This document shows, piece by piece, positions 23,411 through 41,504 of a DNA stretch of 64,000 nucleotides (the first letter of the stretch is position 1; every line of letters starts with the position of its first letter). This DNA is from a virus: the IMG/VR virus record IMGVR_UViG_3300016469_000426, positions 3,785 through 67,784 of that record; one strand, given 5' to 3'. The position numbers were made by a program, and so were the translations under genes. The notes beneath the pieces were generated by a model that was not told the DNA's origin, did no database searches, and worked only from the letters and a program-made list of their open reading frames with translations.

Positions 23411-25006
23411 TTAAGCTAGTTCTACAGATAGTACTCCAGCATTAGTAAAGATACGATACCTGTTACCATTAGTTCTGTCTAACACAATGAAACCGCGATT
23501 ATTGGTGAGAGTTTCAACATCTCCGTTTACAGTAAGTTTAGATGTGATACCAGCATTAGTACCAATACCTACGTTTCCGGAACCATTCAGGTAAGAATCT
23601 GCTGTTTTAGATAAAGCAAAGCTTGGAGTAGTAGAGAGCCATCCCAAGAATAAAGCATCATCATGAGTACTTTCCATGTATCCGGAAGAGTAATTACCGT
23701 ATCCCATTACAATAGCTCCTCTATGAGAAGCTTTAGTAAAATACCCAACAGCTACACCATTTTGTGCACGAGCTTCAGCAAAAGAACTTAAGCTTAGTGA
23801 ATCTACAGAATTAGCTATGGTAGATACCCCGATGGCAATAGAATTTGCACCTGAAGCGGCAGCTAGATAAGCTATAGCCACCGAAAAGTTTCCAGAAGCA
23901 GTACATTGGGTACCAAGAGCCAGTGCCGCAAAAGCAGAGGCTGTACCAAAAGAACCGATAGCTGCGGCATAATCTGCTGTAGCAACAGATTGTGTACCTA
24001 GAGCTGTAGTTGATGGCCTTGTTCCGGAAGAATAAATCCCCATTACTACCGCGTTTGCACCTGTTGCGCTGGCCTCCTGTCCTATTACGATAGAAGCTCC
24101 GCTACCTAATGTGGTATTAGCATTAATACCCATGATAATACCACCATCATCTCTCAGATATGCAAGAGCTGCATCAGCAAAATTACGAATGTGTAAACTG
24201 TAAGTAGAATTACCAGCTCCAGCTCCTTTAACATTAAAAGTAGCATTACCGGTAATAGCATTCACCATTACTTTGGTATTCTGAATATAAATTTCTGGAA
24301 CTACACTGATTGCAGGAGAAGCCCCATCTACAATAAGAGCAATACTAGATATGTTGCTCTCGTTAGAAATTACAAGATTACCGGTGGTGCTTTTTGAAAG
24401 AACATATGCTCCTTGATACCAAGTCCCGACCTCATCTGTTTTCCCGTGAAGTGTAAGATGTGCAGTATCTGAACCACCAACCATGTATGATAAACGAGCA
24501 TATCTTGTAGGTCCAGTTTCCAACATCGCAGTTACAGGCTGACCTGCTCCGCTTTTATTTACATGTAGTTCATAAAGAGGAAGAATATTGATACCAACTT
24601 TTGCGTCATTGAGTGTTCCAAACTGAAGACTATGCCCACCAAAATTTACTGATCTTGGACCAGTAAATGTTCCATTACTGTTATAGATATTTACACTTAC
24701 CGGTGGAGGTAAAAGATCTATGAAATCTTCAATACTAACTGCAAAATTTTGGTAACTGCTTTGATTTCTGGAATCTTTTACTTTTTTACCAATGACCAAA
24801 AGATCTGCATTTTCTAGTTGCAATTCTGTAATCAAACGGCCGTTAGCTATAATGGCGGGAAAGTTTACAACATCCATGTGATAACTGTATTTACTATAAT
24901 ATACAGAATTATCATCACTTTGCCAAATTTTTTGTTGCCCGGGAACGATTTGAACGTCCGTTCTCTGGTCCAAAACCAGATGTCCTGCCGCTAGACGACC
25001 GGGCAT
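23411..25006 (-). CDS. tail fibre / receptor-binding protein
   Basis: 531 aa, Gly/Ala/Ser/Asn-rich beta repeats (GANSIAIGV, GNVGIGTNAG). Confidence 0.55.
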   Translation of the reverse strand: MPGRLAAGHLVLDQRTDVQIVPGQQKIWQSDDNSVYYSKYSYHMDVVNFPAIIANGRLITELQLENADLLVIGKKVKDSRNQSSYQNFAVSIEDFIDLLPPPVSVNIYNSNGTFTGPRSVNFGGHSLQFGTLNDAKVGINILPLYELHVNKSGAGQPVTAMLETGPTRYARLSYMVGGSDTAHLTLHGKTDEVGTWYQGAYVLSKSTTGNLVISNESNISSIALIVDGASPAISVVPEIYIQNTKVMVNAITGNATFNVKGAGAGNSTYSLHIRNFADAALAYLRDDGGIIMGINANTTLGSGASIVIGQEASATGANAVVMGIYSSGTRPSTTALGTQSVATADYAAAIGSFGTASAFAALALGTQCTASGNFSVAIAYLAAASGANSIAIGVSTIANSVDSLSLSSFAEARAQNGVAVGYFTKASHRGAIVMGYGNYSSGYMESTHDDALFLGWLSTTPSFALSKTADSYLNGSGNVGIGTNAGITSKLTVNGDVETLTNNRGFIVLDRTNGNRYRIFTNAGVLSVELA

Positions 25007-25015
25007 TGTAATCAG

Positions 25016-25087
25016 AGACCCTGGAGAGATTCGAACTCCCGACCATCTGATCCGTATTCAGAAGCGCTTCCGCTGCGCCACAGGGTC
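25016..25087 (-). tRNA. tRNA-Arg (anticodon ACG)
   Basis: Hand-folded: acceptor GACCCTG/CAGGGTC, T-loop TTCGAAT, anticodon loop ATACGGA. Confidence 0.7.
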
Positions 25088-25094
25088 AAATTGG

Positions 25095-25167
25095 GGTGAC
25101 CGGCGAGATTTGAACTCGCAACCTTCTGCGCCACAAGCAGACGTTCCACCGATTGAACTACGGCCAC
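25095..25167 (-). tRNA. tRNA-His (GTG)
   Basis: Acceptor GTGGCCG/CGGTCAC, loop TTGTGGC. Confidence 0.7.
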
Positions 25168-25169
25168 AG

Positions 25170-25243
25170 AGCCCGAGGACGGAATCGAACCGCCGACCCT
25201 CTGTTTACAAAACAGTAGCTCTAACCCGCTGAGCTACTCGGGC
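25170..25243 (-). tRNA. tRNA-Thr (TGT)
   Basis: Acceptor GCCCGAG/CTCGGGC, loop TTTGTAA. Confidence 0.7.
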
Positions 25244-25251
25244 TAATATTG

Positions 25252-25324
25252 TATCCCGGACGGGATTTGAACCCGTGTGACCAGACTGAAAACCTGGGAT
25301 CCTAGACCACTAGATGACCGGGAC
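25252..25324 (-). tRNA. tRNA-Glu (TTC)
   Basis: GTCCCGG acceptor, 3-bp D-stem, loop TTTTCAG. Confidence 0.7.
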
Positions 25325-25389
25325 ATGTGAGTGTTCGGGAGACCTGGTACTATATCTCCTCCTTTATCAGGCGTCATTATCACTCGTTG

Positions 25390-25463
25390 TTGCGGGAATG
25401 GGATTCGAACCCATGTCGTTCGGCTTATGAGACCGAGCTGGAACCGCTCCAGTCCACCCCGCA
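25390..25463 (-). tRNA. tRNA-Met/Ile2-type (CAT), atypical 4-nt acceptor-to-D linker
   Basis: Acceptor TGCGGGG/TCCCGCA, loop CTCATAA, D-stem CTGG/CCAG. Confidence 0.55.
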
Positions 25464-25471
25464 TTATTTTG

Positions 25472-25545
25472 TAGGCCCTACCGGGTTTGAACCGGTGACC
25501 TTTACCTTATAAGAGTACTGCTCTGACCAGCTGAGCTAAGGGCCT
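25472..25545 (-). tRNA. tRNA with anticodon TAT (Ile, AUA-reading)
   Basis: Acceptor AGGCCCT/AGGGCCT, loop CTTATAA, one G-A mismatch at top of anticodon stem. Confidence 0.5.
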
Positions 25546-25554
25546 ATTACTTGG

Positions 25555-25626
25555 AACCCCTGACCAGACTCGAACTGGTAACCTTGAGCTTAGAAGTCTC
25601 TTGCTCTTCCATTGAGCTACAGGGGC
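25555..25626 (-). tRNA. tRNA-Arg (TCT), weak anticodon stem
   Basis: Acceptor GCCCCTG/CAGGGGT, loop CTTCTAA. Confidence 0.5.
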
Positions 25627-25634
25627 AGCTTCAG

Positions 25635-25706
25635 TTCCCCCGCCGGGAGTCGAACCCGGCCCCATAGATTAAAAGTCTATTGCCTACACCAGTTTGCTAC
25701 GAGGGA
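25635..25706 (-). tRNA. tRNA-Lys (TTT), weak D-stem
   Basis: Acceptor TCCCTCG/CGGGGGA, anticodon stem ATAGA/TCTAT, loop CTTTTAA. Confidence 0.55.
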
Positions 25707-25808
25707 ATGTTAAATCATGCTGACTTACGTCTGCACTTTATCTTCTTTCGTATCAAGCTGTTGTATAACATGACTGTTAAATCTTCTTTTTTGCTTTGTT
25801 AATTGTTG

Positions 25809-25886
25809 TAGGAACAGAAGGATTCGAACCTTCGACTGACCCTGCTTGTAAGGCAAGCGCTCTGAACCGGGCTGAGCTATGCTCCT
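25809..25886 (-). tRNA. tRNA-Val (TAC), 7-nt variable loop
   Basis: Acceptor AGGAGCA/TGTTCCT, loop CTTACAA. Confidence 0.6.
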
Positions 25887-25894
25887 ATTTTAGT

Positions 25895-25965
25895 TGACAT
25901 GGCAGGGATTGAACCTACGACCTCCCGCGTATCAGGCGGATGCTCTACCGCTGAGCTACATGTCA
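25895..25965 (-). tRNA. tRNA-Ile (GAT)
   Basis: Acceptor TGACATG/CATGTCA, loop CTGATAC. Confidence 0.7.
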
Positions 25966-25972
25966 ATGTTTG

Positions 25973-26045
25973 CGGACTGTATAGGGTTCGAACCTATGAC
26001 CCTCGCCTTAACAGGGCGCCGCTCAGCCAACCGAGCTCACAGTCC
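25973..26045 (-). tRNA. tRNA-Asn (GTT)
   Basis: Acceptor GGACTGT/ACAGTCC, loop CTGTTAA. Confidence 0.65.
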
Positions 26046-26049
26046 ATTG

Positions 26050-26126
26050 CGGTCTATGTCGGAGTCGAACCGACCTGATGTCCCGCGTGACAGGCGGGTG
26101 TCCACAACCAAGCAGACCCATAGACC
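26050..26126 (-). tRNA. tRNA-Asp (GTC), 7-nt variable loop
   Basis: Acceptor GGTCTAT/ATAGACC, stem CCCGC/GCGGG, loop CTGTCAC. Confidence 0.6.
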
Positions 26127-26131
26127 ATTAG

Positions 26132-26205
26132 AGCGAGTGATGAGGCTCGAACTCACAACACCCTGCTTGGAAGGCAGGTACTCTAGCCAATTGAGCTACA
26201 CTCGC
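26132..26205 (-). tRNA. tRNA-Gly (TCC)
   Basis: Acceptor GCGAGTG/CACTCGC, loop CTTCCAA. Confidence 0.7.
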
Positions 26206-26318
26206 AGTATCAACACTGATGAGGCTTTTTCAGAACTTAAGCTACACCCAGCATAGCATACGGCCTTTAACCGTTCCTCATCCTCCCGCTTCTGGATTAC
26301 AGGAGTTGTTTCAACTTG

Positions 26319-26393
26319 TGGAATGGCTGGGATTTGAACCCAGGACCTTCTGCTTGCAAAGCAGCTGCTCGACCAGACCGAGCTCCGCACCCC
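26319..26393 (-). tRNA. tRNA-Ala (TGC) with G3-U70
   Basis: Acceptor GGGGTGC/CCATTCC (G3.U70, one C-C mismatch), loop TTTGCAA. Confidence 0.55.
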
Positions 26394-26447
26394 TAGTGAC
26401 CCTTTTCTTTAATTTTCAGTTTGTGGCGGCCGATCCATATCTGCTAG

Positions 26448-26520
26448 TCGGAGTTGCTGGACTCGAACCAACGGTCTCCTGGTCCCAAACCAGGCGCGAT
26501 ACCAACTTCGCTAAACCCCG
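26448..26520 (-). tRNA. tRNA-Pro (TGG)
   Basis: Acceptor CGGGGTT/AACTCCG, loop TTTGGGA. Confidence 0.7.
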
Positions 26521-26523
26521 TAA

Positions 26524-26560
26524 ACAAAAAAAGCCCCTGATTTCTCAGAGGCTCTTTCTT
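26524..26560. terminator. hairpin flanked by A7 and T-rich tracts (bidirectional terminator-like) inside tRNA array
   Basis: agcccctga tttc tcagaggct, flanked by aaaaaaa and ctttctt. Confidence 0.4.
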
Positions 26561-26751
26561 ATCAAGTTAATCCAAAATTCTTATTTCATGATGGACACAA
26601 CAAGAGCCTCTACGCAATTCGGTTCGTCACCTTTGCGCACGATATTCATTTGGGCCGTATGTTGTATGTTTCTCATTTGCGTTACAAATATACAAACAAT
26701 TTATACATGTGCAACACAACATGTATATTTTTTTTTGATTTTCTTTATATG

Positions 26752-26825
26752 TACTCCCGACCGGACTCGAACCGGTAGCTTACGGATTTTAAGTCCGCTG
26801 TGTTTACCCATTTCACCACGGAAGT
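26752..26825 (-). tRNA. class-I tRNA with anticodon TAA (Leu codon UUA) but short variable loop and Gln/Glu-type 3-bp D-stem; identity uncertain
   Basis: Acceptor ACTTCCG/CGGGAGT, stem GCGGA/TCCGT, loop CTTAAAA, variable AAGCT. Confidence 0.5.
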
Positions 26826-26829
26826 ATTG

Positions 26830-26907
26830 TACCCTCTGAGAGACTCGAACTCTCACCCGAAGACTAGATCCTAAGTCTAGCGCGTCTACCAATTTCGCCA
26901 AGAGGGC
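26830..26907 (-). tRNA. tRNA-Leu (TAG) with short (9-nt) variable arm
   Basis: Acceptor GCCCTCT/AGAGGGT, stem CTAGA/TCTAG, loop CTTAGGA. Confidence 0.55.
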
Positions 26908-26914
26908 GTATTAG

Positions 26915-27000
26915 CGGAGAACAGTGGCCCTGATCCACAATCGTAATATTACGATCAGACTGCTTAGCAGGCAGCTCCTACCCAGGTAGGTTTATTCTCC
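26915..27000 (-). tRNA. tRNA-Ser (GCT)-like, class II, atypical T-loop
   Basis: Acceptor GGAGAAT/GTTCTCC, loop CTGCTAA (as in E. coli Ser-GCU), long variable hairpin ATCGTAATATTACGAT, T-loop ATCAGGG. Confidence 0.45.
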
Positions 27001-27004
27001 ATTG

Positions 27005-27077
27005 AGGTACCGGCGTGATTCGAACACGCGTACTCGAGTTTTGCAGACTGAGGACTAAACCGCTCATCCACGGTACC
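27005..27077 (-). tRNA. tRNA-Cys (GCA)
   Basis: Acceptor GGTACCG/CGGTACC, loop CTGCAAA. Confidence 0.6.
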
Positions 27078-27083
27078 TTGTTG

Positions 27084-27156
27084 CACATGAGGAAGGGGTC
27101 GAACCTCCGACACCTGGTTTTGGAGACCAGTGCTCTACCATCTGAGCTACTCATGT
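27084..27156 (-). tRNA. tRNA-Trp (CCA)
   Basis: Acceptor ACATGAG/CTCATGT, loop CTCCAAA. Confidence 0.7.
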
Positions 27157-27160
27157 ATAG

Positions 27161-27251
27161 CGGAAAGCGGAGGACCCGACCCCCAGTCCAGTTACCCAGA
27201 CACCCGGTTTTCAAGACCGGTCGCGGCTCCAATGCCACTGCTTCACTTTCC
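27161..27251 (-). tRNA. tRNA-Ser (TGA), class II, atypical T-loop
   Basis: Stem CCGGT/ACCGG, loop CTTGAAA; similar to E. coli Ser-UGA; T-loop TCGGGT. Confidence 0.5.
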
Positions 27252-27256
27252 AATTG

Positions 27257-27340
27257 TGGGACCCGGTGGACTCGAACCACTCCTCCGAAGAGACCGAATT
27301 TACAGTCCGGCTGCCGTATCCAAGACGACTTTCAGTTCCC
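27257..27340 (-). tRNA. tRNA-Tyr (GTA), class II
   Basis: Stem CCGGA/TTCGG, loop CTGTAAA, variable hairpin CTCTTCGGAG. Confidence 0.6.
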
Positions 27341-27348
27341 ATGTTTTG

Positions 27349-27421
27349 TGGAGCCACCTGGTATCGAACCAGGATCTCAGGATTTTCAGTCCCACGCATA
27401 GACCGTCTTTGCTATAGCTCC
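27349..27421 (-). tRNA. tRNA-Phe (GAA)
   Basis: Acceptor GGAGCTA/TGGCTCC, loop CTGAAAA. Confidence 0.7.
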
Positions 27422-27591: not shown

Positions 27592-28296
27592 TTAGTGGTA
27601 AGTTTTTATAGCATCTAAAACATCTGCTTCTGTTTTGATCCATCCCCTTTCTATAGCATTCACTACATATTTTTCAATTTGAGTTATAGTTTTAAGCTGA
27701 GCAGAGTTTGCGAGATTTCTCATGCCTCCTGCTTGGTGATAACCAAAAACTCTAGTGTTAATGGCTTTATAAACATTTTGATAAGTTAGCGCAGTAGCTT
27801 TACCGTTCAACATTCCGTTTATAGCTCCGTTAAGCGGTCTTACTTCAGTACCGGCCTCGATGCGATCAAATATCAAAGTATCGGTTAACCATATTACAAC
27901 CTTAGCATAGATCATGGGGTTGAGCTCCATAGCAAGAAGTACCCAGATATAGGGATCTGCCATTACAGTCTTGTTGCTTCCACGACCCGTAGTCTTCCAT
28001 ACTTCAAGACCTTTAAGAACGTTGACAATACCTTCTCTATCAACCATTTCGGTAAAACTAAGAAAACTTAGTTTTATGAGACCTCTCTCATACAGAAGGT
28101 GATAGGCCCTTTCCTTAAAATCTTTGGTTTGTAAAATCATGGTCAGGTTCTTATCACTCCACCCATGTTGCCACCTACCTTTTTCATAGGCGGCTTGTAG
28201 ATCAGACACAGATAAAAATCCCGGCTTTGTATTCTGCCGGATAGCCACACCAAACAACTCCCTGTCAGTGCTAGATAATGTTACGTTGGTTTTCAT
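27592..28296 (-). CDS. KilA-N/Bro-N-like DNA-binding domain protein (antirepressor-like)
   Basis: 234 aa; N-terminal FGVAIRQNTKPGFLSVSDLQAAY pattern resembles Bro-N/KilA-N. Confidence 0.35.
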   Translation of the reverse strand: MKTNVTLSSTDRELFGVAIRQNTKPGFLSVSDLQAAYEKGRWQHGWSDKNLTMILQTKDFKERAYHLLYERGLIKLSFLSFTEMVDREGIVNVLKGLEVWKTTGRGSNKTVMADPYIWVLLAMELNPMIYAKVVIWLTDTLIFDRIEAGTEVRPLNGAINGMLNGKATALTYQNVYKAINTRVFGYHQAGGMRNLANSAQLKTITQIEKYVVNAIERGWIKTEADVLDAIKTYH

Positions 28297-28453: not shown

Positions 28454-28457
28454 AATC

Positions 28458-28466
28458 AACCCCCCT
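28458..28466 (+). promoter_or_regulatory. CAACCCCC motif copy 1
   Basis: caacccccc. Confidence 0.4.
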
Positions 28467-28703
28467 CGGTGTTTGGAAAGCGGGGGTACCCCGGGGTGCT
28501 TGACAGATCAAATCTGATTTCATGGGACATGAGGAAAAAGAATTCTTACAGGAGAATGTTTTCTGTGGCCTGATAGGATGAGAACATCTGGATGGTCTTG
28601 ATCATCCTTGTCTTGGTCATGTCTTGTGATGTCCAACGCACAAGGCCTGTGCTTGATTATACATTGATCTATGCACCTCGGGAACAAAAGCATATAAGGC
28701 GAT

Positions 28704-28711
28704 CAACCCCC
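28704..28711 (+). promoter_or_regulatory. CAACCCCC motif copy 2, 37 nt upstream of ATG 28748
   Basis: followed by TAAATGTTTAACC. Confidence 0.45.
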
Positions 28712-28747
28712 TTTAGCCTGTAAATGTTTAACCTTAATACCATCACC

Positions 28748-28972
28748 ATGAACAGTGTATTCAATTTTGAAAACGTTAACGGTCAGCGTAAGAAAACCGA
28801 GACAATTACTTACCGTAATGGTAACGTAGTAAAGAGAGTGTTTGACCACGTCAGCGATATCGTGCCAAGCGATATCATTCACGTTACAGATAATGCTCCT
28901 GTTGGTAAGATACCTGTAATGCCAATCGAGCATCGCGAGGTAGCCTTGTACAGACAGCACTACAACTGTTAA
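28748..28972 (+). CDS. hypothetical small protein
   Basis: ORF; start chosen at ATG following catcacc leader. Confidence 0.45.
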   Translation: MNSVFNFENVNGQRKKTETITYRNGNVVKRVFDHVSDIVPSDIIHVTDNAPVGKIPVMPIEHREVALYRQHYNC

Positions 28973-28975
28973 GAG

Positions 28976-29010
28976 AATAGCCAGGCCAAAGGGTCTGGCT
29001 TTTCTTTTCC
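28976..29010 (+). terminator. Rho-independent terminator
   Basis: agccagg ccaaagggt ctggct tttcttttcc. Confidence 0.45.
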
Positions 29011-29024
29011 ATGTTTCACATGTT

Positions 29025-29032
29025 CAACCCCC
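29025..29032 (+). promoter_or_regulatory. CAACCCCC motif copy 3
   Basis: 23 nt upstream of ATG 29055. Confidence 0.45.
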
Positions 29033-29054
29033 TTCGGGGATAAAACCCATCATC

Positions 29055-29357
29055 ATGAGAATATCCTTTGACCAAATGCGTACCATGAGATATGGTATCC
29101 ATTCTATAGGCACACATGTTCACGCAAAGCTACGCTACACAGCAGAGCTTACCGACAGAATGCTCACAGACAATGAGCTTCGTCCATACATGAATGACCT
29201 AACTGTCATGTTCAATAAGTCTAGGACGCATGCCCACATCGCATTCATAGCACATCAGAATGCTGGACTTGCACAATTGCTTTACCGCGTTGAACAAAGA
29301 CAAAGAGCTAAGCTTGCTATAGAGAAAGCGAGCAGAGTAATCGAGAGCCAGGCCTAA
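29055..29357 (+). CDS. hypothetical protein
   Basis: 100 aa ORF. Confidence 0.45.
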   Translation: MRISFDQMRTMRYGIHSIGTHVHAKLRYTAELTDRMLTDNELRPYMNDLTVMFNKSRTHAHIAFIAHQNAGLAQLLYRVEQRQRAKLAIEKASRVIESQA

Positions 29358-29372
29358 GCCTGGTTCTCTTCA
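29347..29372 (+). terminator. terminator-like hairpin plus T-rich tail overlapping gene end
   Basis: gccaggc ctaa gcctgg ttctctt. Confidence 0.35.
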
Positions 29373-29377
29373 TTAGT

Positions 29378-29384
29378 CAACCCC
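29378..29384 (+). promoter_or_regulatory. CAACCCC motif copy 4 (4 C)
   Basis: 26 nt upstream of ATG 29410. Confidence 0.4.
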
Positions 29385-29409
29385 TTAATCATCTCAAATA
29401 ACCATCACC

Positions 29410-29709
29410 ATGACAGCAACTCTTATTGACCCAAACTATGTTCTCAGCGATGAGAAGAAGACCAAGGTCTGTATGATTACAGACATCAACAAAGCCAACA
29501 AGCTATTACTTGGTCGCAATATCGATACTCAAGAGTTCGATATGCTTTACGATTCAGATGTGCACACACTGAGCGAAGTACTCAGACGTGTAGGCGAGGC
29601 TATCCGGTTCCGCATGAACGTGATCAACATAGCTCGTGAGCTATTTGAGATCAGCGAAGCAGCGAAACAATACCGTGAGAGACGGCGTTACGAGGAGGAC
29701 GGGAATTAA
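29410..29709 (+). CDS. hypothetical protein
   Basis: 99 aa ORF. Confidence 0.45.
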   Translation: MTATLIDPNYVLSDEKKTKVCMITDINKANKLLLGRNIDTQEFDMLYDSDVHTLSEVLRRVGEAIRFRMNVINIARELFEISEAAKQYRERRRYEEDGN

Positions 29710-29727
29710 TCCCGTTCTCTTTTTATC
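29697..29727 (+). terminator. terminator
   Basis: acggga attaa tcccgt tctctttttatc. Confidence 0.45.
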
Positions 29728-29732
29728 TGAGC

Positions 29733-29740
29733 CAACCCCC
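29733..29740 (+). promoter_or_regulatory. CAACCCCC motif copy 5
   Basis: followed by TATAAATATA then catcaccATG. Confidence 0.45.
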
Positions 29741-29765
29741 TTATTGATTATAAATATACATCACC

Positions 29766-30032
29766 ATGAAGAAGACAAGTAATGTAAGCAAGGTGTTACT
29801 CGTGACCTTGCTGGTAGCTGCAGTTGCATCTGCGGGCATCGAGTTATCTATCTGGTACTTCGGAGTAAAAGAGACCATGGTAGCGCTTGGAATCGTTGGT
29901 GGTATCGCATTCGCAATGATCATCTTCGGCCGTGAGAAGACAAGCTCACACTGGGTTGAAGATAATCGTGAGAGAATGTGGCATCAACAAAGGCTTACTG
30001 AAGAAGCCTTCAGGCAAAAGTACTGTAAGTAG
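29766..30032 (+). CDS. small two-TM membrane protein
   Basis: VLLVTLLVAAVASAGI and LGIVGGIAFAMIIFG hydrophobic helices. Confidence 0.5.
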   Translation: MKKTSNVSKVLLVTLLVAAVASAGIELSIWYFGVKETMVALGIVGGIAFAMIIFGREKTSSHWVEDNRERMWHQQRLTEEAFRQKYCK

Positions 30033-30220
30033 TACACTGGGTAGGGCAATAGCTCTACCCTTATCCTTCCGATTATCAGGTGATGGATAATGACACTGGG
30101 ACGCTCCTCATATGGAGGAGCTCTCAGCTGTCTTAAGTTTGGGACACGAGCCGCTCGCACTGATTACTTCAGGAACGCTCACCCAACGCACATGCCATCG
30201 CTTCATCCAATACACAAGAA

Positions 30221-30228
30221 CAACCCCC
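30221..30228 (+). promoter_or_regulatory. CAACCCCC motif copy 6
   Basis: followed by TAAATATTGTTTAACC. Confidence 0.45.
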
Positions 30229-30270
30229 TTTGGGTAGTAAATATTGTTTAACCATCTAAATCCAATCATC

Positions 30271-30654
30271 ATGAAAGCAACACTTGCACGCTCTTACAAG
30301 AGCAAGAACGGTAACACCGTATTCGTTTACGGCGTATCAGGCAAAGCAGACGAACTCGAAGCCTTTGCCAAAGCACAGGGCGATAACCATCGCGTTGACG
30401 AACAAACGGGTAAACCGCTTTGGTTCACCACACGTTGTATCGGCCAAACAGGTGAACTCATCATTACCACGAACGGTAAGGTCGTTCCCGACATGAGCGC
30501 CTTCGACCAGGCAGCCAGCCTTGCCAAGCAATACGGCGGTAACTTGGGCGACCAGCTTGCCAAAGCCGCAGCAGAGCAATTGCTCGGACATCGCGGCAAC
30601 ACAGCCAGCGTACCGCAGAACACACCTCAGGACACACCTGAAGAACAGTTCTAA
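30271..30654 (+). CDS. hypothetical protein, paralog A of duplicated pair
   Basis: MKATLARSYKSKNGNTVFVYGVSG...; ~70% identical to 31584..31970 product. Confidence 0.55.
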   Translation: MKATLARSYKSKNGNTVFVYGVSGKADELEAFAKAQGDNHRVDEQTGKPLWFTTRCIGQTGELIITTNGKVVPDMSAFDQAASLAKQYGGNLGDQLAKAAAEQLLGHRGNTASVPQNTPQDTPEEQF

Positions 30655-30660
30655 CAGAGA

Positions 30661-30695
30661 AGACACCCTTAACCGGGTGTCTTTCTTTTTTTTCC
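30661..30695 (+). terminator. Rho-independent terminator
   Basis: agacaccc ttaacc gggtgtct ttcttttttttcc. Confidence 0.6.
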
Positions 30696-30792
30696 TTCAT
30701 CAAAGATCTCCTACCAACAGGAGGTCACCTCGAGAGAAAGAAAGTTTTTACTATCATCCTCTCTGTCTGCCTCCATGACTCGCCGGCTCAAC

Positions 30793-30799
30793 CAACCCC
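30793..30799 (+). promoter_or_regulatory. CAACCCC(A) motif copy 7
   Basis: 21 nt upstream of ATG 30821. Confidence 0.35.
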
Positions 30800-30820
30800 A
30801 TTTCTTCATATCTTTGTGTC

Positions 30821-31123
30821 ATGGCTAAATCAACACGCAACAGCAATGCAGGGAAGTCGACAGGGAAGTCTGCCTCTGCCAAGTACTTTGCTTCTCACCC
30901 TGAAGCACGCGCTAAGAAGAACGAGTACAACAAGAAGTACCACGCAACCACCGAGCGAAAGAACTATCGTGAAGAACTCAACAAGGTTAACCGCCGGAAC
31001 AACGATGCCGGTTATGGCGACAACAAAGACTTAAGCCACACTAAGTCGGGTAAGCTCGTCCAGGAAAACCGATCATCTAATCGCGCTCGCAACGGTAAGA
31101 ACGGGAAATCCTCCAAGAAATAA
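30821..31123 (+). CDS. highly basic Lys/Arg/Asn-rich protein (nucleic-acid-binding candidate)
   Basis: 100 aa, pI clearly basic. Confidence 0.45.
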   Translation: MAKSTRNSNAGKSTGKSASAKYFASHPEARAKKNEYNKKYHATTERKNYREELNKVNRRNNDAGYGDNKDLSHTKSGKLVQENRSSNRARNGKNGKSSKK

Positions 31124-31140
31124 CCCCTTTCGCCAATCTA

Positions 31141-31168
31141 TAATCTTAGCTTACTAATCTTAGCTTAC
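31141..31168. repeat. perfect 14-bp tandem direct repeat taatcttagcttac x2
   Basis: Seen directly in 460-nt non-coding hub. Confidence 0.5.
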
Positions 31169-31272
31169 TACTCTATACTATATTACTCTTTACTGGTATT
31201 GTTAGGCGAGAAATGAACACGCCTAAGTGTCTGTGATTCTGCCATATAGCAGCCTTCCCGCTCACTTATCAA

Positions 31273-31288
31273 CCGACAAATTTGTCGG
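31273..31288. promoter_or_regulatory. 16-bp perfect palindrome CCGACAAATTTGTCGG (operator candidate, copy 1)
   Basis: Related copies at 32048 and 32155. Confidence 0.45.
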
Positions 31289-31319
31289 AAAAGCATTTGC
31301 TCTGTACTTGATCTCTTCC

Positions 31320-31327
31320 CAACCCCC
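31320..31327 (+). promoter_or_regulatory. CAACCCCC motif copy 8
   Basis: upstream of a 16-codon mini-ORF. Confidence 0.35.
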
Positions 31328-31494
31328 TTCTCCTTAGAACTTTTAGGTATGATTGAGAGTCGTCTGGTATGGCCTGACTATCTCATGATGCCATGAGTTA
31401 TTAACGCGAGAACGTTCAGAAGTGAGAGACATGTCAGTAAGTGGTGTCTTGAGCCGGCATTCTCGCTCACTTATTAACATCTTCAAGCTCCTAC

Positions 31495-31502
31495 CAACCC
31501 CC
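31495..31502 (+). promoter_or_regulatory. CAACCCCC motif copy 9
   Basis: upstream of paralog B; followed by TAATGTTTAACC. Confidence 0.45.
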
Positions 31503-31583
31503 TTTTCTCAGGACACATTGGCTCCATAGTCAGGATATGGAGATATGTGAGACATAATGTTTAACCCAAAAATCCAACTCAAG

Positions 31584-31970
31584 ATGAAAATCAAGTTGAT
31601 CCGCTCGTACAAGAGCAAAAACGGCAACACAGTGTTTGTGTATGCTGTAAGTGGAACCCAAGAGCAACTCGAGGCGTTCGCAAAAGCCCAAGGTGACAAT
31701 CACCGCGTGGATGAAGTAACCGGAACACCGTTGTGGTTCACAACTCGTTGCGTAGGTCAATCAGGAAACCTGATTATCACCACCAACGGTAAAGTTGTAC
31801 CTGACATGTCTGCGTTTGACCAGGCTGCAAGCTTGGCTGCACAGTACGGTGGTAACTTCGGTGACCAGTTGGCCCGTATGGCTGCTGAGCAATTGCTTGG
31901 CGGCGGTGCGAAGAGCACAGCTGTTGAAGCGAAGGCCGAACCGAAAGGTGAGGACATCAGTAAGCTGTAA
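31584..31970 (+). CDS. hypothetical protein, paralog B of duplicated pair
   Basis: MKIKLIRSYKSKNGNTVFVYAVSG...; alternative start 31557. Confidence 0.55.
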   Translation: MKIKLIRSYKSKNGNTVFVYAVSGTQEQLEAFAKAQGDNHRVDEVTGTPLWFTTRCVGQSGNLIITTNGKVVPDMSAFDQAASLAAQYGGNFGDQLARMAAEQLLGGGAKSTAVEAKAEPKGEDISKL

Positions 31971-31992
31971 AAGCGAGCTGATTTGCTTATAG

Positions 31993-32030
31993 GAGCTACC
32001 TTGAGAGATCTTGGTAGCTCTTTTTCTTTC
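31993..32030 (+). terminator. Rho-independent terminator
   Basis: gagctacc ttgagagatctt ggtagctc tttttctttc. Confidence 0.6.
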
Positions 32031-32047
32031 CCGACAAGGGTAAAACT

Positions 32048-32063
32048 CCGACAAAATTGTCGC
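32048..32063. promoter_or_regulatory. palindrome CCGACAAAATTGTCGC (operator candidate, copy 2)
   Basis: One-position variant of copy 1. Confidence 0.4.
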
Positions 32064-32154
32064 AAAATCGAGCACGCCAACTCGTAACTTATTGAAGATG
32101 AGAGAGAATGTGAGTGGGTATTAAACTCCCACTCCTTTCTCCACCTTCAAAACA

Positions 32155-32170
32155 CCGTCAAATTTGTCGC
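32155..32170. promoter_or_regulatory. palindrome CCGTCAAATTTGTCGC (operator candidate, copy 3)
   Basis: Half-site variant. Confidence 0.35.
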
Positions 32171-32224
32171 TAAGACAGACGACGACCTCGCACTATATAA
32201 CTATCACCACCTAATAACAAGCTT

Positions 32225-32470
32225 ATGGCTTTATCTGAAGACTCGATACGTTACCTATACTATCGTTATCAGGATCTTCTTAAAGATCTCAAGTATGAAA
32301 GAGACATTGCTCTAAAGCTAGGGGATAAAGAGCTATATGAAGTGCTAAGAGAGGCTATCGACCACGTTGAAGATTCTCAGAAGAAGGTTGATAACCATAT
32401 CCGCTTAACAAACGGCTCCAAAATCGTCCAACAGTTTAACAACTTACTGAAAGATGACTCGCTCAGCTGA
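32225..32470 (+). CDS. hypothetical protein
   Basis: 81 aa ORF. Confidence 0.45.
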   Translation: MALSEDSIRYLYYRYQDLLKDLKYERDIALKLGDKELYEVLREAIDHVEDSQKKVDNHIRLTNGSKIVQQFNNLLKDDSLS

Positions 32471-32681
32471 AGACGCTCTTGTAGAAGAGCATGAGAGATA
32501 CATGAAAGAAGTATCTGAGTCCGGCATGCCTTTGTGGATGCTGGATTACTACGCCAAGAGCAATGCTCAGTGGCAGGAAGAAGAACATCTCAAGAACCAA
32601 CTCAAAAACCCACACCATGAAGCCGACAAGGAAGATTCTCCGCCTCATGATGGAGGCGATGATCCCCATCTTTTTATATGA
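32454..32681 (+). CDS. hypothetical acidic protein (overlaps next ORF in another frame)
   Basis: 75 aa ORF. Confidence 0.3.
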   Translation: MTRSAEDALVEEHERYMKEVSESGMPLWMLDYYAKSNAQWQEEEHLKNQLKNPHHEADKEDSPPHDGGDDPHLFI

Positions 32682-38237: not shown

Positions 38238-38837
38238 TTGAAAATTAACAAAAAGGTGTATCTTTGCGGCATGACTTCAGCCGTATACATCATCAGAAAT
38301 ACTGTAAACAGCAAGATTTATGTCGGAAGTTCTCAAGATCTAAAAGGAAGATGGAAAACCCATCTTGATAAACTTCGTATAGGTAGGCATCACAACAAGA
38401 GACTTCAACACCATTACAATAAATACGGAGAACAATCTCTCATCATGGAAATTCTGGAAGAGGTATCGCACAATCTCTTAATACTTAGGGAACAGTACTG
38501 GATGGACAAACTGCAACCTTGGTTTAATCTTTGTCCTATAGCTGGAAGCTCCAAAGGAAGGGTATGTACTCAAGAACATAGAGCAAACTTATCTAAGGCT
38601 CACATTGGCAAAAAACATTCCGTAGAAGCCAGATCAAAAATGTCCGCTTCTCATAAAGGTACCAAGAAACCTTGGGCAAGAGGTAAAGGCAAATTAACTA
38701 TAGGACAGGTGCTGAAAATAAGAGATGAGCTCAGTATCAAATCTTGTGCTCAACTCGCAAAAGAATATGGAGTGAAGAGTTCAGCTATTAGCAAAATCAA
38801 ACAGGGTAGAACCTGGAACACCCTTTCTTTGTCCTGA
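38238..38837 (+). CDS. GIY-YIG homing endonuclease (I-TevI-like, with NUMOD3 repeats and C-terminal HTH)
   Basis: VYIIRNTVNSKIYVGSSQDLKGRWKTH (GIY-x10-YIG...R...H); three KGK/GK...S.E.R.K.S repeats; ...KSCAQLAKEYGVKSSAISKI. Confidence 0.8.
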   Translation: MKINKKVYLCGMTSAVYIIRNTVNSKIYVGSSQDLKGRWKTHLDKLRIGRHHNKRLQHHYNKYGEQSLIMEILEEVSHNLLILREQYWMDKLQPWFNLCPIAGSSKGRVCTQEHRANLSKAHIGKKHSVEARSKMSASHKGTKKPWARGKGKLTIGQVLKIRDELSIKSCAQLAKEYGVKSSAISKIKQGRTWNTLSLS

Positions 38838-39436
38838 TGATGTCAGGGGTGTATAAATATCAGACGAAACACTATGTGTCGGCAATGCACGAAGTTTAGC
38901 CGCCTAGACGCCATTCGAGCGAAGGCTGCCGGATACCTGGATCCGTGACAAAACCACAAGGTGGTCGAGTCTAAACCAGGAGAAATTGCTGGGAGCAAAA
39001 GTCGGGTGAGATTGTAAATCATCTCACTCGGCACTCTCAGCTTCTCATTAAAGGCTGCATACCGCACTTTAAAACAACGATCTGTTAAATCGAAAAGACG
39101 CAGCCTGCTCCTCTTAAGGACTCCGAACAGCACCTACAAACCACTTGCCTTTTAAGCAAACCCGGTGGAGTCCGCCCCTTTTTAAGGGATGCTTGCAGCA
39201 CTAAAAACCCATTTGAAACATGGCTTAGTGGCATCCTGCACCTATTGACTATAATGGATACATCAGCACTCTGAAACTATAAATCAGAGAGCCCGAAAGG
39301 GCAAACCTGGGAGAACCCTTTGCTCAATTAGCTAAGGTGGGTACCGTATCCTGTTATGTAGTCAACCCCACCGCCCGTGAAAAGGTGGTGGGTTCTCCCT
39401 CAATCCTCAAGTAACAACCATTAAATCTAAGCCGTA
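38838..39436 (+). ncRNA. 600-nt ORF-poor, highly structured region downstream of GIY-YIG gene
   Basis: GNRA hairpin gcccGAAAgggc, GGGAGAACCC...GGGTTCTCCC long-range repeat, GGACTCC...GGAGTCC. Confidence 0.3.
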
Positions 39437-40546
39437 ATGAGCAGACTTGTTAATGCAGCACGTAGCTATGACGCTACAACAAATAAAGGAGCAGTTACTC
39501 ACTCTACCTCCTTGAACTTCTGTCTCGATATGTTCTTCCTTGCAGGAGCATCTCGCAATATGGACGAGAAGTCTATGATCACCATCTTTGAAAGAGCTTA
39601 TGCTCAAGATCCAAACATTGCGGCCAAGATTTTATTCTGGTCTCGTGATGCTCGTGGTGGTGCAGGTGAGCGCCGATTCTTTCATACAATTATGCGACAT
39701 ATTCTGGATAAATATCCTGAGGTTGCAGACAAACTAATGGTACATGTACCAGAGTTTGGGTATTGGAAGGATGTGTTCGCAATAGAGAAACCGAACGAGA
39801 ACAACCTTAACTGGTTGAAACATTCTCTTGAGGAATCTCCTAATGCGAATCTCTTGGCCAAATGGTTCCCGCGCAAAGGTCCATGGTTTGTAGCCATGCA
39901 TCGTTATCTTGGTATGACGCCTAAAGAATTTCGCAAGAAACTCGTGGCAATGACTAAGGTAGTAGAAACGCAGATGTGTAACCAAGAATGGAAAGGTATC
40001 AAGTACGAAGCAGTACCTTCTATCGCGATGAATAAATACCGCAAGGCATTTTTCAAACACGATGAAGAACGTATGAAAGCATACGTTGAGGCCGTACATT
40101 CAGGTGAAGCTAAGATTAACGCATCAGTACTATTCCCTCATCAATTGTATCAAGCAATTAATAAAGGGGAGAATGAGCGTGCAGTCGAAGCACAGTGGAA
40201 TAACCTACCAGATTATATGGAAGGATCAACAGAACGCATCACTCCGGTGTGTGATGTATCTGGAAGTATGATGGGATTACCTATGGACGTAAGTGTAGCG
40301 CTGGGGATTTATATCTCTGAGCGTAACAAAGGTATCTTCAAAGATGCCTTCTTGACTTTCTCTGAAAGACCTGAGATGCAATACCTGAAAGGGTCACTTG
40401 CTCAAAGAATGCGTCAGCTGAATCAAGCTCCATGGGGTGGTACCACAAATCTGCAGTCGACCTTTGACTTAATCCTCAACAGTGCAATCAGAGAGAAAAT
40501 CTCTGAGGATGAAATGCCAACCAAGATCTTAATCATCTCGGATTAA
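39437..40546 (+). CDS. vWA-domain protein, 5' exon (frame stops at TAA 40544-40546 at intron start)
   Basis: MIDAS motif DVSGSM; ends ...KILIISD; preceded by taaatctaagccgtaATG. Confidence 0.65.
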   Translation: MSRLVNAARSYDATTNKGAVTHSTSLNFCLDMFFLAGASRNMDEKSMITIFERAYAQDPNIAAKILFWSRDARGGAGERRFFHTIMRHILDKYPEVADKLMVHVPEFGYWKDVFAIEKPNENNLNWLKHSLEESPNANLLAKWFPRKGPWFVAMHRYLGMTPKEFRKKLVAMTKVVETQMCNQEWKGIKYEAVPSIAMNKYRKAFFKHDEERMKAYVEAVHSGEAKINASVLFPHQLYQAINKGENERAVEAQWNNLPDYMEGSTERITPVCDVSGSMMGLPMDVSVALGIYISERNKGIFKDAFLTFSERPEMQYLKGSLAQRMRQLNQAPWGGTTNLQSTFDLILNSAIREKISEDEMPTKILIISD

Positions 40547-41504
40547 TCTTAGTCCCTCTCAGTAGAAATACTGATGAGAAAACGCTTTAAATTGCGGGAA
40601 ACTCTTTAGAACTCTAATTACCAACTCATCACAGTAATGTAGATGAGGGTGTTACTAATCATAACAGTATGGTAAAAACATTAGAGATTAGACAATCCGC
40701 AGCCAAACTTGTAAAATTATTTGTGTACGTGGAATTTAAACTGTATATTTGTTGTATGAAAACAAGACAATATACACTAGATGAAGACTTCTTCTCTGTC
40801 ATAGACAGTGAAGAAAAGGCTTATTGGTTAGGCTTTATATTTGCAGATGGTTCAGTAACTGTCCGGAGTGCTGGACAAGCCGTACTGCAAATAAAATGTC
40901 ATATTAAAGACGCAGCTCATCTAAATAAATTCCACAAGGATATTGGTACAAACAAGCCTATTAAATATTATAGTCAGAAAACAGTCTACTCAAATAGTAA
41001 GTATGCTCAATCAGCTTTAATATCTAATACACTTGTACAAGATTTAATCTCAAAAGGATGTGTTCCCAGAAAGAGTTTGATTCTCAAATGGCCTAACAAT
41101 CTTACAGAAGAATTAGCTCCTCATTTTATGAGAGGTTATTTTGACGGAGACGGCTCAATATGTGAAACAACTCAGAAAACCAAGCATGGTATCTGGAAAC
41201 ACCCTGCAATCAGTATTTGCGGAACAAAAGAGTTCCTTACCGAGTTTGCTAAAAGATTGAATATTGAAAAGTGTATCTATCCTGAGTACAGAAAAAAAGA
41301 CAAAAATTGTTGGTCTCTCAAGCTCAGCTCAAAAAAAAGATGTAAATCTTTCTTTGACTTGCTTTATAAAGATCAACATGTATGTCTATCTAGAAAACTT
41401 GAAAAGTTTTTAGAATTACAAGGAGGTTCAACGACTACAATAAGCGCACCTACACAGGTGATGGTATAGTCTGATCTTACATGAGAATGTAAGCTAACAT
41501 AATG
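40544..41504 (+). mobile_element. group-I-like intron interrupting vWA gene, carrying LAGLIDADG endonuclease
   Basis: Exon 1 ends on U (40543), downstream in-frame continuation MEFDSACSY... begins after G 41504; boundaries inferred from protein continuity. Confidence 0.5.
40669..41469 (+). CDS. LAGLIDADG homing endonuclease (double-motif)
   Basis: AYWLGFIFADGSV and MRGYFDGDGSI motifs. Confidence 0.8.
   Translation: MVKTLEIRQSAAKLVKLFVYVEFKLYICCMKTRQYTLDEDFFSVIDSEEKAYWLGFIFADGSVTVRSAGQAVLQIKCHIKDAAHLNKFHKDIGTNKPIKYYSQKTVYSNSKYAQSALISNTLVQDLISKGCVPRKSLILKWPNNLTEELAPHFMRGYFDGDGSICETTQKTKHGIWKHPAISICGTKEFLTEFAKRLNIEKCIYPEYRKKDKNCWSLKLSSKKRCKSFFDLLYKDQHVCLSRKLEKFLELQGGSTTTISAPTQVMV

Follow-up and report, generated by a model that had tools for sequence, protein, structure and literature searches.

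A possible transcription-control architecture around a duplicated gene at the head of the rightward genes of an uncultured crAss-like phage

Cellulophaga phage phi14:2 is the only crAss-like phage that has been studied experimentally. Its early genes are read by the virion polymerase, no early-promoter motif common to them was found, and its early intergenic regions are highly transcribed as non-coding RNA (bioRxiv 10.1101/2020.03.07.982082). The 64-kb stretch of phage DNA analysed here (the window) resembles phi14:2 in that its small early genes form a rightward block in which the intergenic regions are unusually long, but the region lacks sequence homology to that phage: a comparison found no F protein (the family described below), CAACCCC motif, palindrome or gene in common.

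Judging by its capsid gene, the source of the window is an uncultured crAss-like phage. The gene at 6918-8543 carries a Crass_capsid domain (PF23898, E = 3.5e-32), and the nearest deposited capsid, that of Leptolyngbya phage Lbo-JY46, has 29% identity to it. A megablast search with the segment from 29.0 to 33.5 kb gave no match among 50,697 deposited phages. No lysogeny genes were seen, and the phage is presumably lytic. The coding strand switches at approximately 28.3-28.7 kb, and the region studied here, which holds two paralogous genes (A and B) and a set of palindromes, lies directly to the right of the switch and is part of the first rightward gene block.

This block begins with a run of single-gene cassettes from 28457 to 32022, of which A and B are two. 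Each cassette is headed by a motif on the + strand, (C)CAACCCC(C)TT(C)TTG. The CAACCCC core occurs nine times on this strand within 3.1 kb, against 0.12 expected (Poisson P ~1e-14), and seven of the nine copies lie 28-89 nt 5' of an ATG. In the upstream part of the array (28457-30060, + strand) it starts at 28457, 28704, 29025, 29378 and 29733; all of these except 28457 are followed by the ATG of a small ORF 30-44 nt on and then by a terminator hairpin. After the copies at 28457 and 31320 there is no convincing ORF. Further along the + strand, the promoter-like motif CAACCCCCTTTG (30221-30232) starts 50 nt 5' of the ATG of A, and CAACCCCATTTC (30793-30804) starts 28 nt 5' of that of a 100-aa ORF. 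Intrinsic terminators end six of the seven gene-bearing cassettes, the 100-aa ORF being the exception. The terminator of A (30656-30688, + strand) is a G+C-rich hairpin followed by T8. That of B (31991-32022, + strand) is a predicted fold whose stem shows a compensatory double change in two related phage loci, L002 and L009; the arms GGAGCTACC/GGTAGCTC of the window are replaced by GGAGCCACC/GGTGGCTC in L002.

In related loci, the CAACCCC motif was found 160 times on the + strand and 21 times on the - strand, with an extended consensus. We infer that it is a compact promoter, possibly for a phage-specific polymerase. As in the class II/III promoters of T7 and the early promoters of N4, one gene after another is preceded, at a short and fixed distance, by a short conserved motif; the motifs are confined to one strand, terminators lie in between, and too little room is left for a two-hexamer promoter. 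N4 promoters, however, are hairpins, and T7-type promoters are read by a single-subunit polymerase, which is not known in crAss-like phages. A scan for sigma-70-type promoters gave no excess over shuffled sequences, and the Bacteroidetes TTG / TAnnTTTG promoter scheme, fitted by eye, did not work. Comparison of CCAACCCCTTCTTG with described promoters matched no known class. This counts against the architecture proposed below, as do the outcome of the sigma-70 scan and the lack of both this motif and the palindrome in phi14:2.

Paralog A (F1; 127 aa, 30271-30654, + strand) and paralog B (F2; 128 aa, 31584-31970, + strand) had been described as two proteins of about 127 aa with about 70% identity, which is accurate: they are 72% identical over their full length and 79% over a 114-aa core, and their genes are 72% identical over 299 nt. 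They belong to a family, F, with 777 proteins in a word-index search and 579 representatives of 50%-identity clusters in a profile search. Paralog A had no tblastn match among the 50,697 deposited phages, and neither paralog matched anything in Pfam, PHROGs, NCBIfam or the PDB by sequence profile. The conserved core of A comprises approximately 105 aa and was modelled well (pLDDT above 90 for residues 1-50 and above 85 to residue 70), but three fold searches with this core model gave no significant match, and an OB-fold core was not detected in A or B by sequence or by structure. The remainder of A, ending in PEEQF, is an acidic tail that is predicted to be disordered (pLDDT below 50 for residues 106-127). 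Other members likewise have acidic tails ending in F or L (EEQF, DLGDL, DMGDL and, in one long member, DDLPF). Longer members were checked for fused domains, and their extra length turned out to be longer acidic tails only. A conserved ATGTTTAACC box was considered as an N-terminal extension of A and B and rejected, as its frame is kept in neither L006 nor L018.

Single-strand-binding proteins with acidic C-terminal tails include gp2.5 of phage T7, gp32 of phage T4 and bacterial SSB. Family F resembles these in its predicted small, beta-rich core with conserved aromatic and basic residues, followed by the disordered acidic tail, and this combination weakly suggests that F may be a nucleic-acid-binding protein of the single-strand-binding type. 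In any case F is a very strongly conserved, duplicated early protein family that has neither an annotation nor a fold match.

Between the two paralogs lies C100 (30821-31123, + strand), a basic protein of 100 aa that matches phrog_6437 (E = 7.8e-20) and whose homologues include gp50 of Syn5 and proteins of P60 and Flavobacterium phages. No hairpin was found after its stop codon, so that C100 is without a terminator. The order F, small basic protein, F is kept in 47 of 104 related loci, although the C100 gene is deleted in L001. In a phylogenetic tree F1 and F2 cluster by subclade. These comparisons indicate that the F-C100-F trio is common to a broad clade of aquatic phages and that gene conversion keeps the two F copies similar. 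The original prediction placed a non-coding hub, the spacer at 31124-31583, between the paralogs; the interval between A and B is not spacer throughout, as it also contains the terminator of A, a promoter-like motif and the C100 gene.

The spacer between C100 and B had been taken as one iteron-containing hub. Its individual elements are all present, but they are better divided into three parts, namely a variable 14-bp repeat, a conserved regulatory module and two tandem CAACCCC motifs. The predicted perfect 14-bp direct repeat, TAATCTTAGCTTAC in two tandem copies (31141-31168), occupies the place that the distal palindrome has in related modules. It has three copies in L001 and L143, is diverged in L002 and L009 and is absent in distant relatives. 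The module begins with the box GTATTGTTAG (31196-31205, + strand), which lies 78-79 nt 5' of a proximal palindrome in the window as well as in L001, L006, L019 and L205. The inverted repeat TTAGGCG/CGCCTAA (31202-31226, arms 31202-31208 and 31220-31226) is found where it had been predicted. Such 7-nt inverted pairs are expected by chance at an estimated rate of roughly 0.8 per 460 nt, so the pair is near chance level; its 3' arm is disrupted in L001 and L143, and it is probably not functional. The predicted repeat CGCTCACTTAT, at 31259 and 31464, can be extended to 22 nt at 86% identity, with one copy (31252-31273, + strand) 5' of the distal CAACCCC motif and the other (31457-31478, + strand) 5' of the proximal one.

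Two CAACCCC motifs in this spacer are found in 14 of 29 non-redundant loci. In these loci the distal motif lies 174-268 nt from the ATG of F2, and the leader between the proximal motif and the ATG measures 85-93 nt across all 14. In the window the distal motif, CAACCCCCTTCTCC, heads a unit of 175 nt without an ORF (31320-31494, + strand), which could be a tandem promoter with a long leader or a small non-coding transcript; an ORF of 15 aa within it is not kept in L001. The proximal motif, CAACCCCCTTTTCTCAGGACA, heads the 89-nt leader of B (31495-31583, + strand), which is 100% identical in L009 and 94% in L001. The end of this leader, AATGTTTAACCC..AAA..CAAGATG, is conserved, and leader ends are kept even between lineages whose proteins share 57-70% identity with paralog A.

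Three palindromes of the form CGACA-N4-TGTCG lie around paralog B. The first, CCGACAAATTTGTCGG (31273-31288), is the perfect 16-bp palindrome that had been predicted in the spacer, and its centre is ~38 nt 5' of the CAACCCC at 31320. The two near-identical ones predicted just after B were also found. Palindrome 2, CCGACAAAATTGTCGC (32048-32063), lies 79 nt after the stop codon of B and aligns with the distal site of the module; palindrome 3, CCGTCAAATTTGTCGC (32155-32170), aligns with the proximal site and is accompanied by a degenerate second site at 32179-32192. The palindromes thus do not bracket the pair of paralogs, as had been claimed, but B alone, and this arrangement is better described as two copies of the module, one upstream and one downstream of B. 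The expectation that the palindrome is commoner than chance was borne out. A search of the 64-kb window allowing at most one mismatch found three sites, all within 900 bp; none of 1000 block shuffles put three sites into 1 kb, and 3.3% of them gave two within that distance.

Four or more further phage lineages (L019, the L006 clade, L205 and L208) also carry the palindrome, with the sites in non-coding DNA and in pairs or triplets. Exact sites number two in L019, one in L006 (plus two with one mismatch), two in L205 (plus one) and one in L208, against ~0.5 expected in 531 kb. Among at least 12 distinct sites in five lineages the half-sites CGACA and TGTCG are kept and the centre varies (AATT, AAAT, ATTT, CAGG, TCAG, CCTA). 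The spacing of the module is fixed: the distal site is followed after 51-56 nt by GTATTGTTAG and after a further 78-79 nt by the proximal site. In L006 and L205 pairs of sites are 22-23 bp apart, and in L208 a palindrome with the same core as palindrome 2 is located 78 nt past the F stop codon. Among closer relatives, palindrome 1 is perfectly kept in L001, L002 and L009, and palindrome 3 is invariant in L001, both despite diverged flanks; the variant half-site of palindrome 3, in which a G is changed to T (CGTCA), is also present in L205 at 6170. The centre of palindrome 2 differs among close relatives (AAAATT or AATTTT). Not every site can be essential, as L001 has a degenerate palindrome 2 and L143 a degenerate palindrome 1; this is a point against the architecture proposed below. 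When viral contigs were scanned for CGACAAATTTGTCG as an exact 14-mer, more than 119 unrelated single matches were returned, and the scan was uninformative because a 14-mer is too short for a collection of this size.

Downstream of B, a purine-rich stretch is followed by a hairpin (GAGTGGG at 32112-32118 and CCCACTC at 32128-32134) and then CTTTCTCC (together 32100-32140, + strand). This element is kept 3' of F2 in other clades, and L019 has an equivalent, GAGAGGG/CCCTC, in the same place. The promoter-like box GCACTATATAACTA (32190-32203, + strand) would open the next gene block. A pattern derived from it, [ACT]TATAT[AG][AG]CTA, follows the last F gene in 20 of 50 loci, at 199-237 nt from its stop codon, and in 531 kb it was counted 49 times on the + strand and five times on the - strand; within the window, exact-pattern matching turned up a single other good copy of the box, at 9949. 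The first slot after the box is variable: the window has an 81-aa ORF (32225-32470, + strand) that is unique to it, and its closest relatives have other ORFs instead.

The claim that the palindromes are operator sites for a dimeric regulator agrees well with these data: their half-sites are conserved, the centre is variable and the spacing fixed, the sites cluster, and promoter-like motifs adjoin them. Binding itself is our inference. Similar features are known from the operators of lambda (OR/OL), 434 and P22, which are palindromes of 14-16 bp whose half-sites are conserved and whose central spacer tolerates change; there, too, several close sites lie by promoter-like elements with a distal site approximately 100-150 bp off, so that looping is possible. 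Unlike those phages, the window has no identified repressor gene and no visible lysogeny genes, its motifs are not of the sigma-70 type and the position of the module changes between lineages. A search of the neighbouring ORFs for DNA-binding domains, helix-turn-helix or other, found none, and the genes beside the module differ between lineages, none of them being linked to the palindromes as a regulator, which also speaks against this reading.

On balance, we lean slightly towards reading the repeats and palindromes as a transcription-control architecture of this first rightward block. Paralog B would be under two tandem CAACCCC motifs. The proximal one would give rise to the leader of ~89 nt with its fixed length and conserved ends, and the distal one, 175 nt further upstream, would carry an inserted control module made up of palindrome 1 and the GTATTGTTAG box. 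The module is present a second time beyond the terminator of B, where palindromes 2 and 3, at 107 bp from each other, flank the box GCACTATATAACTA, which would start the next gene block. A putative dimeric DNA-binding protein encoded by the phage would bind the CGACA-N4-TGTCG sites, probably cooperatively and with looping between distal and proximal sites, and would thereby control how active the distal promoter of B is and when expression passes from the cassette array to the genes further downstream.

A further point against this architecture is that a sequence-specific hairpin, too, could show a conserved stem around a variable centre. Each site can form a stem of 5-6 bp with a loop of 4 nt, and the few sites are all in the early region. 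The palindromes could then be hairpin promoters, that is, as in coliphage N4, extruded DNA stem-loops recognised by an RNA polymerase packaged in the virion, or RNA stem-loops that a protein binds or cuts. In vitro, the crAss-like virion polymerase gp66 transcribed DNA that had been denatured (single-stranded), and a search for a linear early-promoter motif of this enzyme found none (bioRxiv 10.1101/2020.03.07.982082). Still, we consider this improbable. With three palindromes to nine cassettes, they are too few to serve as the general early promoter; their distance to the next ATG varies where N4-type promoters keep it fixed, and the stems are conserved in sequence without covariation. Close pairs at 22-23 bp and a fixed distance to another box are moreover typical of cooperative binding to duplex DNA. 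The sites are followed by AAAAGC, AAAATC and TAAGAC; as there is no T-run 3' of any of them, they were also rejected as intrinsic terminators. Another possibility is that the 175-nt unit without an ORF, and the similar one at 28457-28703, encodes an abundant small non-coding RNA, with palindrome 1 as its control site. The unit is headed by a promoter-like motif of its own and lacks a conserved ORF, the layout with two motifs is found in 14 of 29 loci, and most genes of phi14:2 are transcribed less strongly than its early intergenic regions (bioRxiv 10.1101/2020.03.07.982082). Moreover, the units are 86-90% identical in L001 and L143 compared with 75-89% at third codon positions of A and B, but this is only a small excess over synonymous sites. 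The proximal motif is not preceded by a terminator, and the internal sequence cannot be aligned between clades. Folding of the spacer and of the unit as RNA was not unusual (z-scores of -0.34 and -0.87), and RNAalifold on four close relatives gave only one covarying pair in the unit, with several pairs broken. Rfam matches in the 64-kb window were restricted to tRNAs and a group I intron, all away from this region. A small RNA therefore seems rather unlikely. For the leader of B a structured RNA was rejected, as RNAalifold on 23 diverse leaders found no consensus pairs; for the 175-nt unit the structural case is weak.

The original prediction also considered an origin-like region, and we judge a replication origin here to be very unlikely. 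The repeats would serve as iterons and the palindromes as binding sites of an initiator, with activation by transcription as in T7 or lambda. The spacer, like the iteron origins of lambda (ori) and of plasmids (oriV), is non-coding and contains short direct repeats and palindromes; it lies near the strand-switch point, and iterons of the lambda type are also palindromic and closely spaced, as are the pairs at 22-23 bp in L006 and L205. Unlike those origins, it lacks conserved repeats, an AT-rich unwinding element, an initiator gene and a skew signal. The 14-bp repeat has only two or three copies, differs between near-identical phages and is absent from distant relatives, and the spacer holds no set of at least three phased, conserved direct repeats by which iterons are recognised. 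Its GC content is 42.4%, compared with 42.2% for the window, and the AT-richest 100-nt stretches are at 27.5-28.4 kb. No DnaA-like box is present in 28-32.8 kb, the sole matches (with one mismatch) being at 26931 and 32826. No initiator gene adjoins the region, and the module shifts relative to the genes between lineages. The cumulative GC skew has its minimum at approximately 34-36 kb, 3-4 kb to the right of the spacer, in a measure that is confounded by the direction of transcription. Finally, the palindromes and repeats might be products of chance or by-products of neutral duplication without function. This probably applies to the TTAGGCG/CGCCTAA pair and the slippage-type 14-bp repeat, but for the set as a whole it is extremely improbable: the clustering of the palindromes was never reached in 1000 shuffles, the geometry of the module is fixed and the palindrome is shared with lineages so distant that their F proteins have only 57-69% identity to paralog A.

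A more far-reaching version of the transcription-control reading is speculative, and we would not expect all of it to hold. In it, CCAACCCC(C)TTCTTG would be the early promoter that the virion polymerase of this clade recognises, the CGACA-N4-TGTCG module would close the early array and open the next block, and F would be a single-strand-binding-type factor of new fold that is tuned via the 89-nt leader. Transcription control in crAss-like phages is almost unknown and their early-promoter signal is so far undefined. The locus offers three short DNA elements (the cassette motif, the operator palindrome and the downstream box) that are conserved across an uncultured aquatic clade. If the cassette motif is not such a promoter, the locus would be an ordinary, though neatly organised, phage regulatory region; if it is a true promoter for a phage polymerase, early genes would become predictable straight from metagenomes.

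The window derives from an uncultured phage that is a relative of the Crassvirales; it encodes a Crass_capsid domain (E = 3.5e-32), and the closest deposited capsid shares just 29% identity with its own. Genes run leftward up to position 28296 and rightward from ~28.7 kb, and an array of 23 tRNA genes (24934-27421, - strand) lies just left of this switch point. An extra tRNA-like Rfam match at 57014-57080 (+) had no ARAGORN call. The last leftward gene (27592-28296, - strand) has weak PHROG matches to an 'amidase' family (E = 1.6e-10) and a transcriptional regulator family (E = 1.3e-3) and is a candidate regulator adjoining the divergent region. Judged by eye, the N-terminus of its product resembles a Bro-N/KilA-N DNA-binding domain. 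The window also carries a group I intron (61973-62264) and several homing endonucleases, among them a GIY-YIG/NUMOD3 enzyme (38238-38837) and two of the LAGLIDADG type (40669-41469 and 42763-43527). Such homing elements are dense across 38238-43527 and 61973-62264, and a DUF2828/DUF7788 gene (39437-40546) beside the LAGLIDADG pair appears interrupted.

The region of interest, with its paralogs and palindromes, lies 2-4 kb inside the rightward arm. Paralog A spans 30271-30654 (127 aa) and paralog B 31584-31970 (128 aa); the two share 72% identity over their full length and 79% across a 114-aa core, which bears out the tandem pair of ~70% identity in the original prediction. They belong to a family, here called F, with 777 word-index matches and, in a separate profile search, 579 representatives at 50% identity; searches of Pfam, PHROGs, NCBIfam, PDB sequences and 50,697 deposited phage genomes gave no hit to it. 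The F core of ~105 aa contains 43 invariant residues across 28 diverse members, and an AlphaFold model shows a confident beta-rich core, two helices and a disordered tail. The tails are acidic with F or L as last residue (one ends in ...DDLPF), and longer members differ merely by longer acidic tails; this composition faintly recalls single-strand-binding proteins. Between the paralogs lies a gene for a 100-aa basic protein, C100 (30821-31123, phrog_6437), with homologues in Syn5, P60 and Flavobacterium phages. Of 104 loci, 47 have the order F, C100, F, and many others are truncated contigs. In a neighbour-joining tree the first and second copies (F1 and F2) group by subclade and not by position, which points to an ancient tandem pair whose copies gene conversion has kept alike. 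In nature the trio can do without its middle gene, since the close relative L001 (3741-4400, compared with window 30655-31583) has a clean deletion of nearly the whole C100 gene, sparing the promoter-like motif, the start codon and the last 20 nt; its F genes are ~92% identical to those of the window at the nucleotide level. The contigs of another relative, recovered in two independent assemblies (k141_2702770 and Ga0315900_10000289), end ~29 nt past the same position, ~6 kb right of F2, which suggests that the genome truly ends close to the early region.

Between 28457 and 31495 the + strand carries nine copies of the heptamer CAACCCC, where 0.12 would be expected (P about 1e-14). For seven of them a small ORF starts 28-89 nt downstream, and six of these seven cassette ORFs are followed by intrinsic terminators; in L002 and L009, both close relatives, the paralog B terminator carries a compensatory double substitution. 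The copies at 28457 and 31320 precede no convincing ORF. When 103 related loci were each oriented by the F gene, unique instances numbered 160 on the + strand and 21 on the - strand, giving the extended consensus C-CAACCCC-YTYTTG..A.GAAA. The gap from a terminator to the following motif is often only ~15 nt, and that from motif to ATG ~25 nt, so that a two-hexamer promoter would not fit; a sigma-70 promoter scan gave no excess over shuffled sequence. We infer that the motif is a compact promoter, possibly specific for a phage polymerase. For Cellulophaga phage phi14:2, the sole crAss-like phage examined by experiment, a common early-promoter motif was not found (bioRxiv 10.1101/2020.03.07.982082), and our comparison detected neither CAACCCC motif nor palindrome in that phage. 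The first cassette (28457-28703), lacking a convincing ORF, is 87-97% identical in L001, L002, L009 and L143, and substitutions in its 19-aa ORF include both synonymous and non-synonymous ones; the cassette may represent a second non-coding unit. Left of it (before ~28440) the DNA of the window is unrelated to that of the same four relatives, and this edge may be a recombination boundary. A conserved box, (A/T)TGTTTAACC, with copies at 28724, 30244 and 31557, stands 20-27 nt before the start codons of ORF 28748, A and B. It has an in-frame ATG or TTG, taken as start by mechanical ORF calling; its frame varies in other lineages, which marks it as a non-coding signal.

The 460-nt spacer between C100 and B (31124-31583) had been read as an iteron-containing hub, and the 14-bp direct repeat, the two copies of CGCTCACTTAT, TTAGGCG/CGCCTAA and the palindromes are all present where they had been placed. 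The spacer can be divided into the 14-bp repeat, a conserved module of box and palindrome, and a pair of CAACCCC motifs. The A-B interval further holds a terminator, a promoter-like motif and the C100 ORF. The 14-bp perfect tandem repeat (two copies, 31141-31168) has three copies in L001 and L143, is diverged in L002 and L009 and is missing from distant relatives; it behaves like a slippage repeat rather than an array of iterons. The TTAGGCG/CGCCTAA inverted repeat (31202-31226) is not conserved in relatives and is probably a chance match. Two tandem CAACCCC motifs lie in the spacer, 175 nt apart, a layout found before F2 in 14 of 29 non-redundant loci, where the proximal motif keeps a fixed distance of 85-93 nt from the start codon of F2, as against 174-268 nt for the distal one. 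Both motif regions share a 22-nt repeat that includes CGCTCACTTAT (31259 and 31464), and differ by a 30-nt insertion bearing palindrome 1. The B leader has conserved ends (5' CCAACCCCTTCTTGTCAGGAAAG; 3' AATGTTTAACCCCAAAAATCAA.TCAAGATG) and its conservation exceeds that of synonymous sites; 23 diverse sequences gave no consensus RNA structure. The 175-nt unit, with neither conserved ORF nor significant fold and an interior not alignable between clades, may be a small RNA or, as is slightly favoured, a long leader that starts at a tandem promoter.

Palindromes 1, 2 and 3 (31273-31288, 32048-32063 and 32155-32170) had been thought to bracket the A-B pair; they do so for B and not for A. They are the only CGACA-N4-TGTCG sites with at most one mismatch in the 64 kb, and none of 1000 shuffles placed three within 1 kb. 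In more distant lineages, whose F proteins are only 57-69% identical to paralog A, exact sites number two in L019 (130 bp apart) and one in L208, and with one-mismatch sites three each in the L006 clade and L205; about 0.5 exact sites would be expected in 531 kb. The L208 site lies 78 nt past the F stop codon, which matches the location of palindrome 2 in the window. A box, GTATTGTTAG (31196), precedes palindrome 1 by 78 nt, and this spacing to the proximal palindrome is 78-79 nt in L001, L006, L019 and L205. A distal palindrome stands 51-56 nt upstream of the box in L006, L019 and L205, a position taken in the window by the 14-bp repeat; in L006 and L205 the first proximal site is followed after 22-23 bp by another. 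Directly after the palindrome pair of L019 an endonuclease-VII-like (HNH-type) gene lies on the opposite strand (7515-7868, -), next to apparently structured sequence (7900-8321); this segment may be a mobile insertion beside the module.

The half-sites are kept and the centre varies. Palindromes 1 and 3 are invariant in close relatives despite diverged flanks, and palindrome 2 shows a centre-only change or decay. This pattern is that of duplex operators of a dimeric protein, and comparative evidence supports the putative operator role originally predicted. A function as terminators was ruled out, as no T-run follows the palindromes. The main rival is a sequence-specific hairpin, for example an N4-type promoter; against it argue the paired sites spaced 22-23 bp, the constant spacing between palindrome and another box, and the fact that nine cassettes face only three palindromes.

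Palindromes 2 and 3 flank a conserved purine-rich hairpin element just upstream of the box GCACTATATAACTA (32190-32203). This is the window's version of [ACT]TATAT[AG][AG]CTA, which occurs 199-237 nt past the last F stop codon in 20 of 50 non-redundant loci with a strand bias of 49 + to 5 -. The following gene block, devoid of CAACCCC motifs, begins at this box. Its first gene (32225-32470) is unique to the window and replaced in the closest relatives; the next (32454-32681) is widely conserved. A near-identical copy of the 32190 box, GCACTATATGACTATCAAC at 9949-9967 (+), lies in the gap between the leftward structural genes 8573-9844 and 9963-12734, hence antisense to them.

A replication origin at the spacer, also suggested originally, is not supported, as its repeats are unconserved, local AT enrichment is absent and no DnaA-like boxes were found within the paralog/palindrome region. 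The GC content of the spacer equals the window mean, and the AT-richest stretches lie at 27.5-28.4 kb. The cumulative GC skew reaches its minimum at 34-36 kb, a signal confounded with gene orientation. Instead, a duplicated early gene that lacks annotation is surrounded, in an uncultured crAss-like clade, by a conserved arrangement of regulatory elements. Its predicted parts are the promoter-like motif of the cassettes, two promoters in tandem with a leader of fixed length, a portable operator module, and a box further downstream. As a type of system this is ordinary for phages; its specific motifs and its protein family are undescribed.
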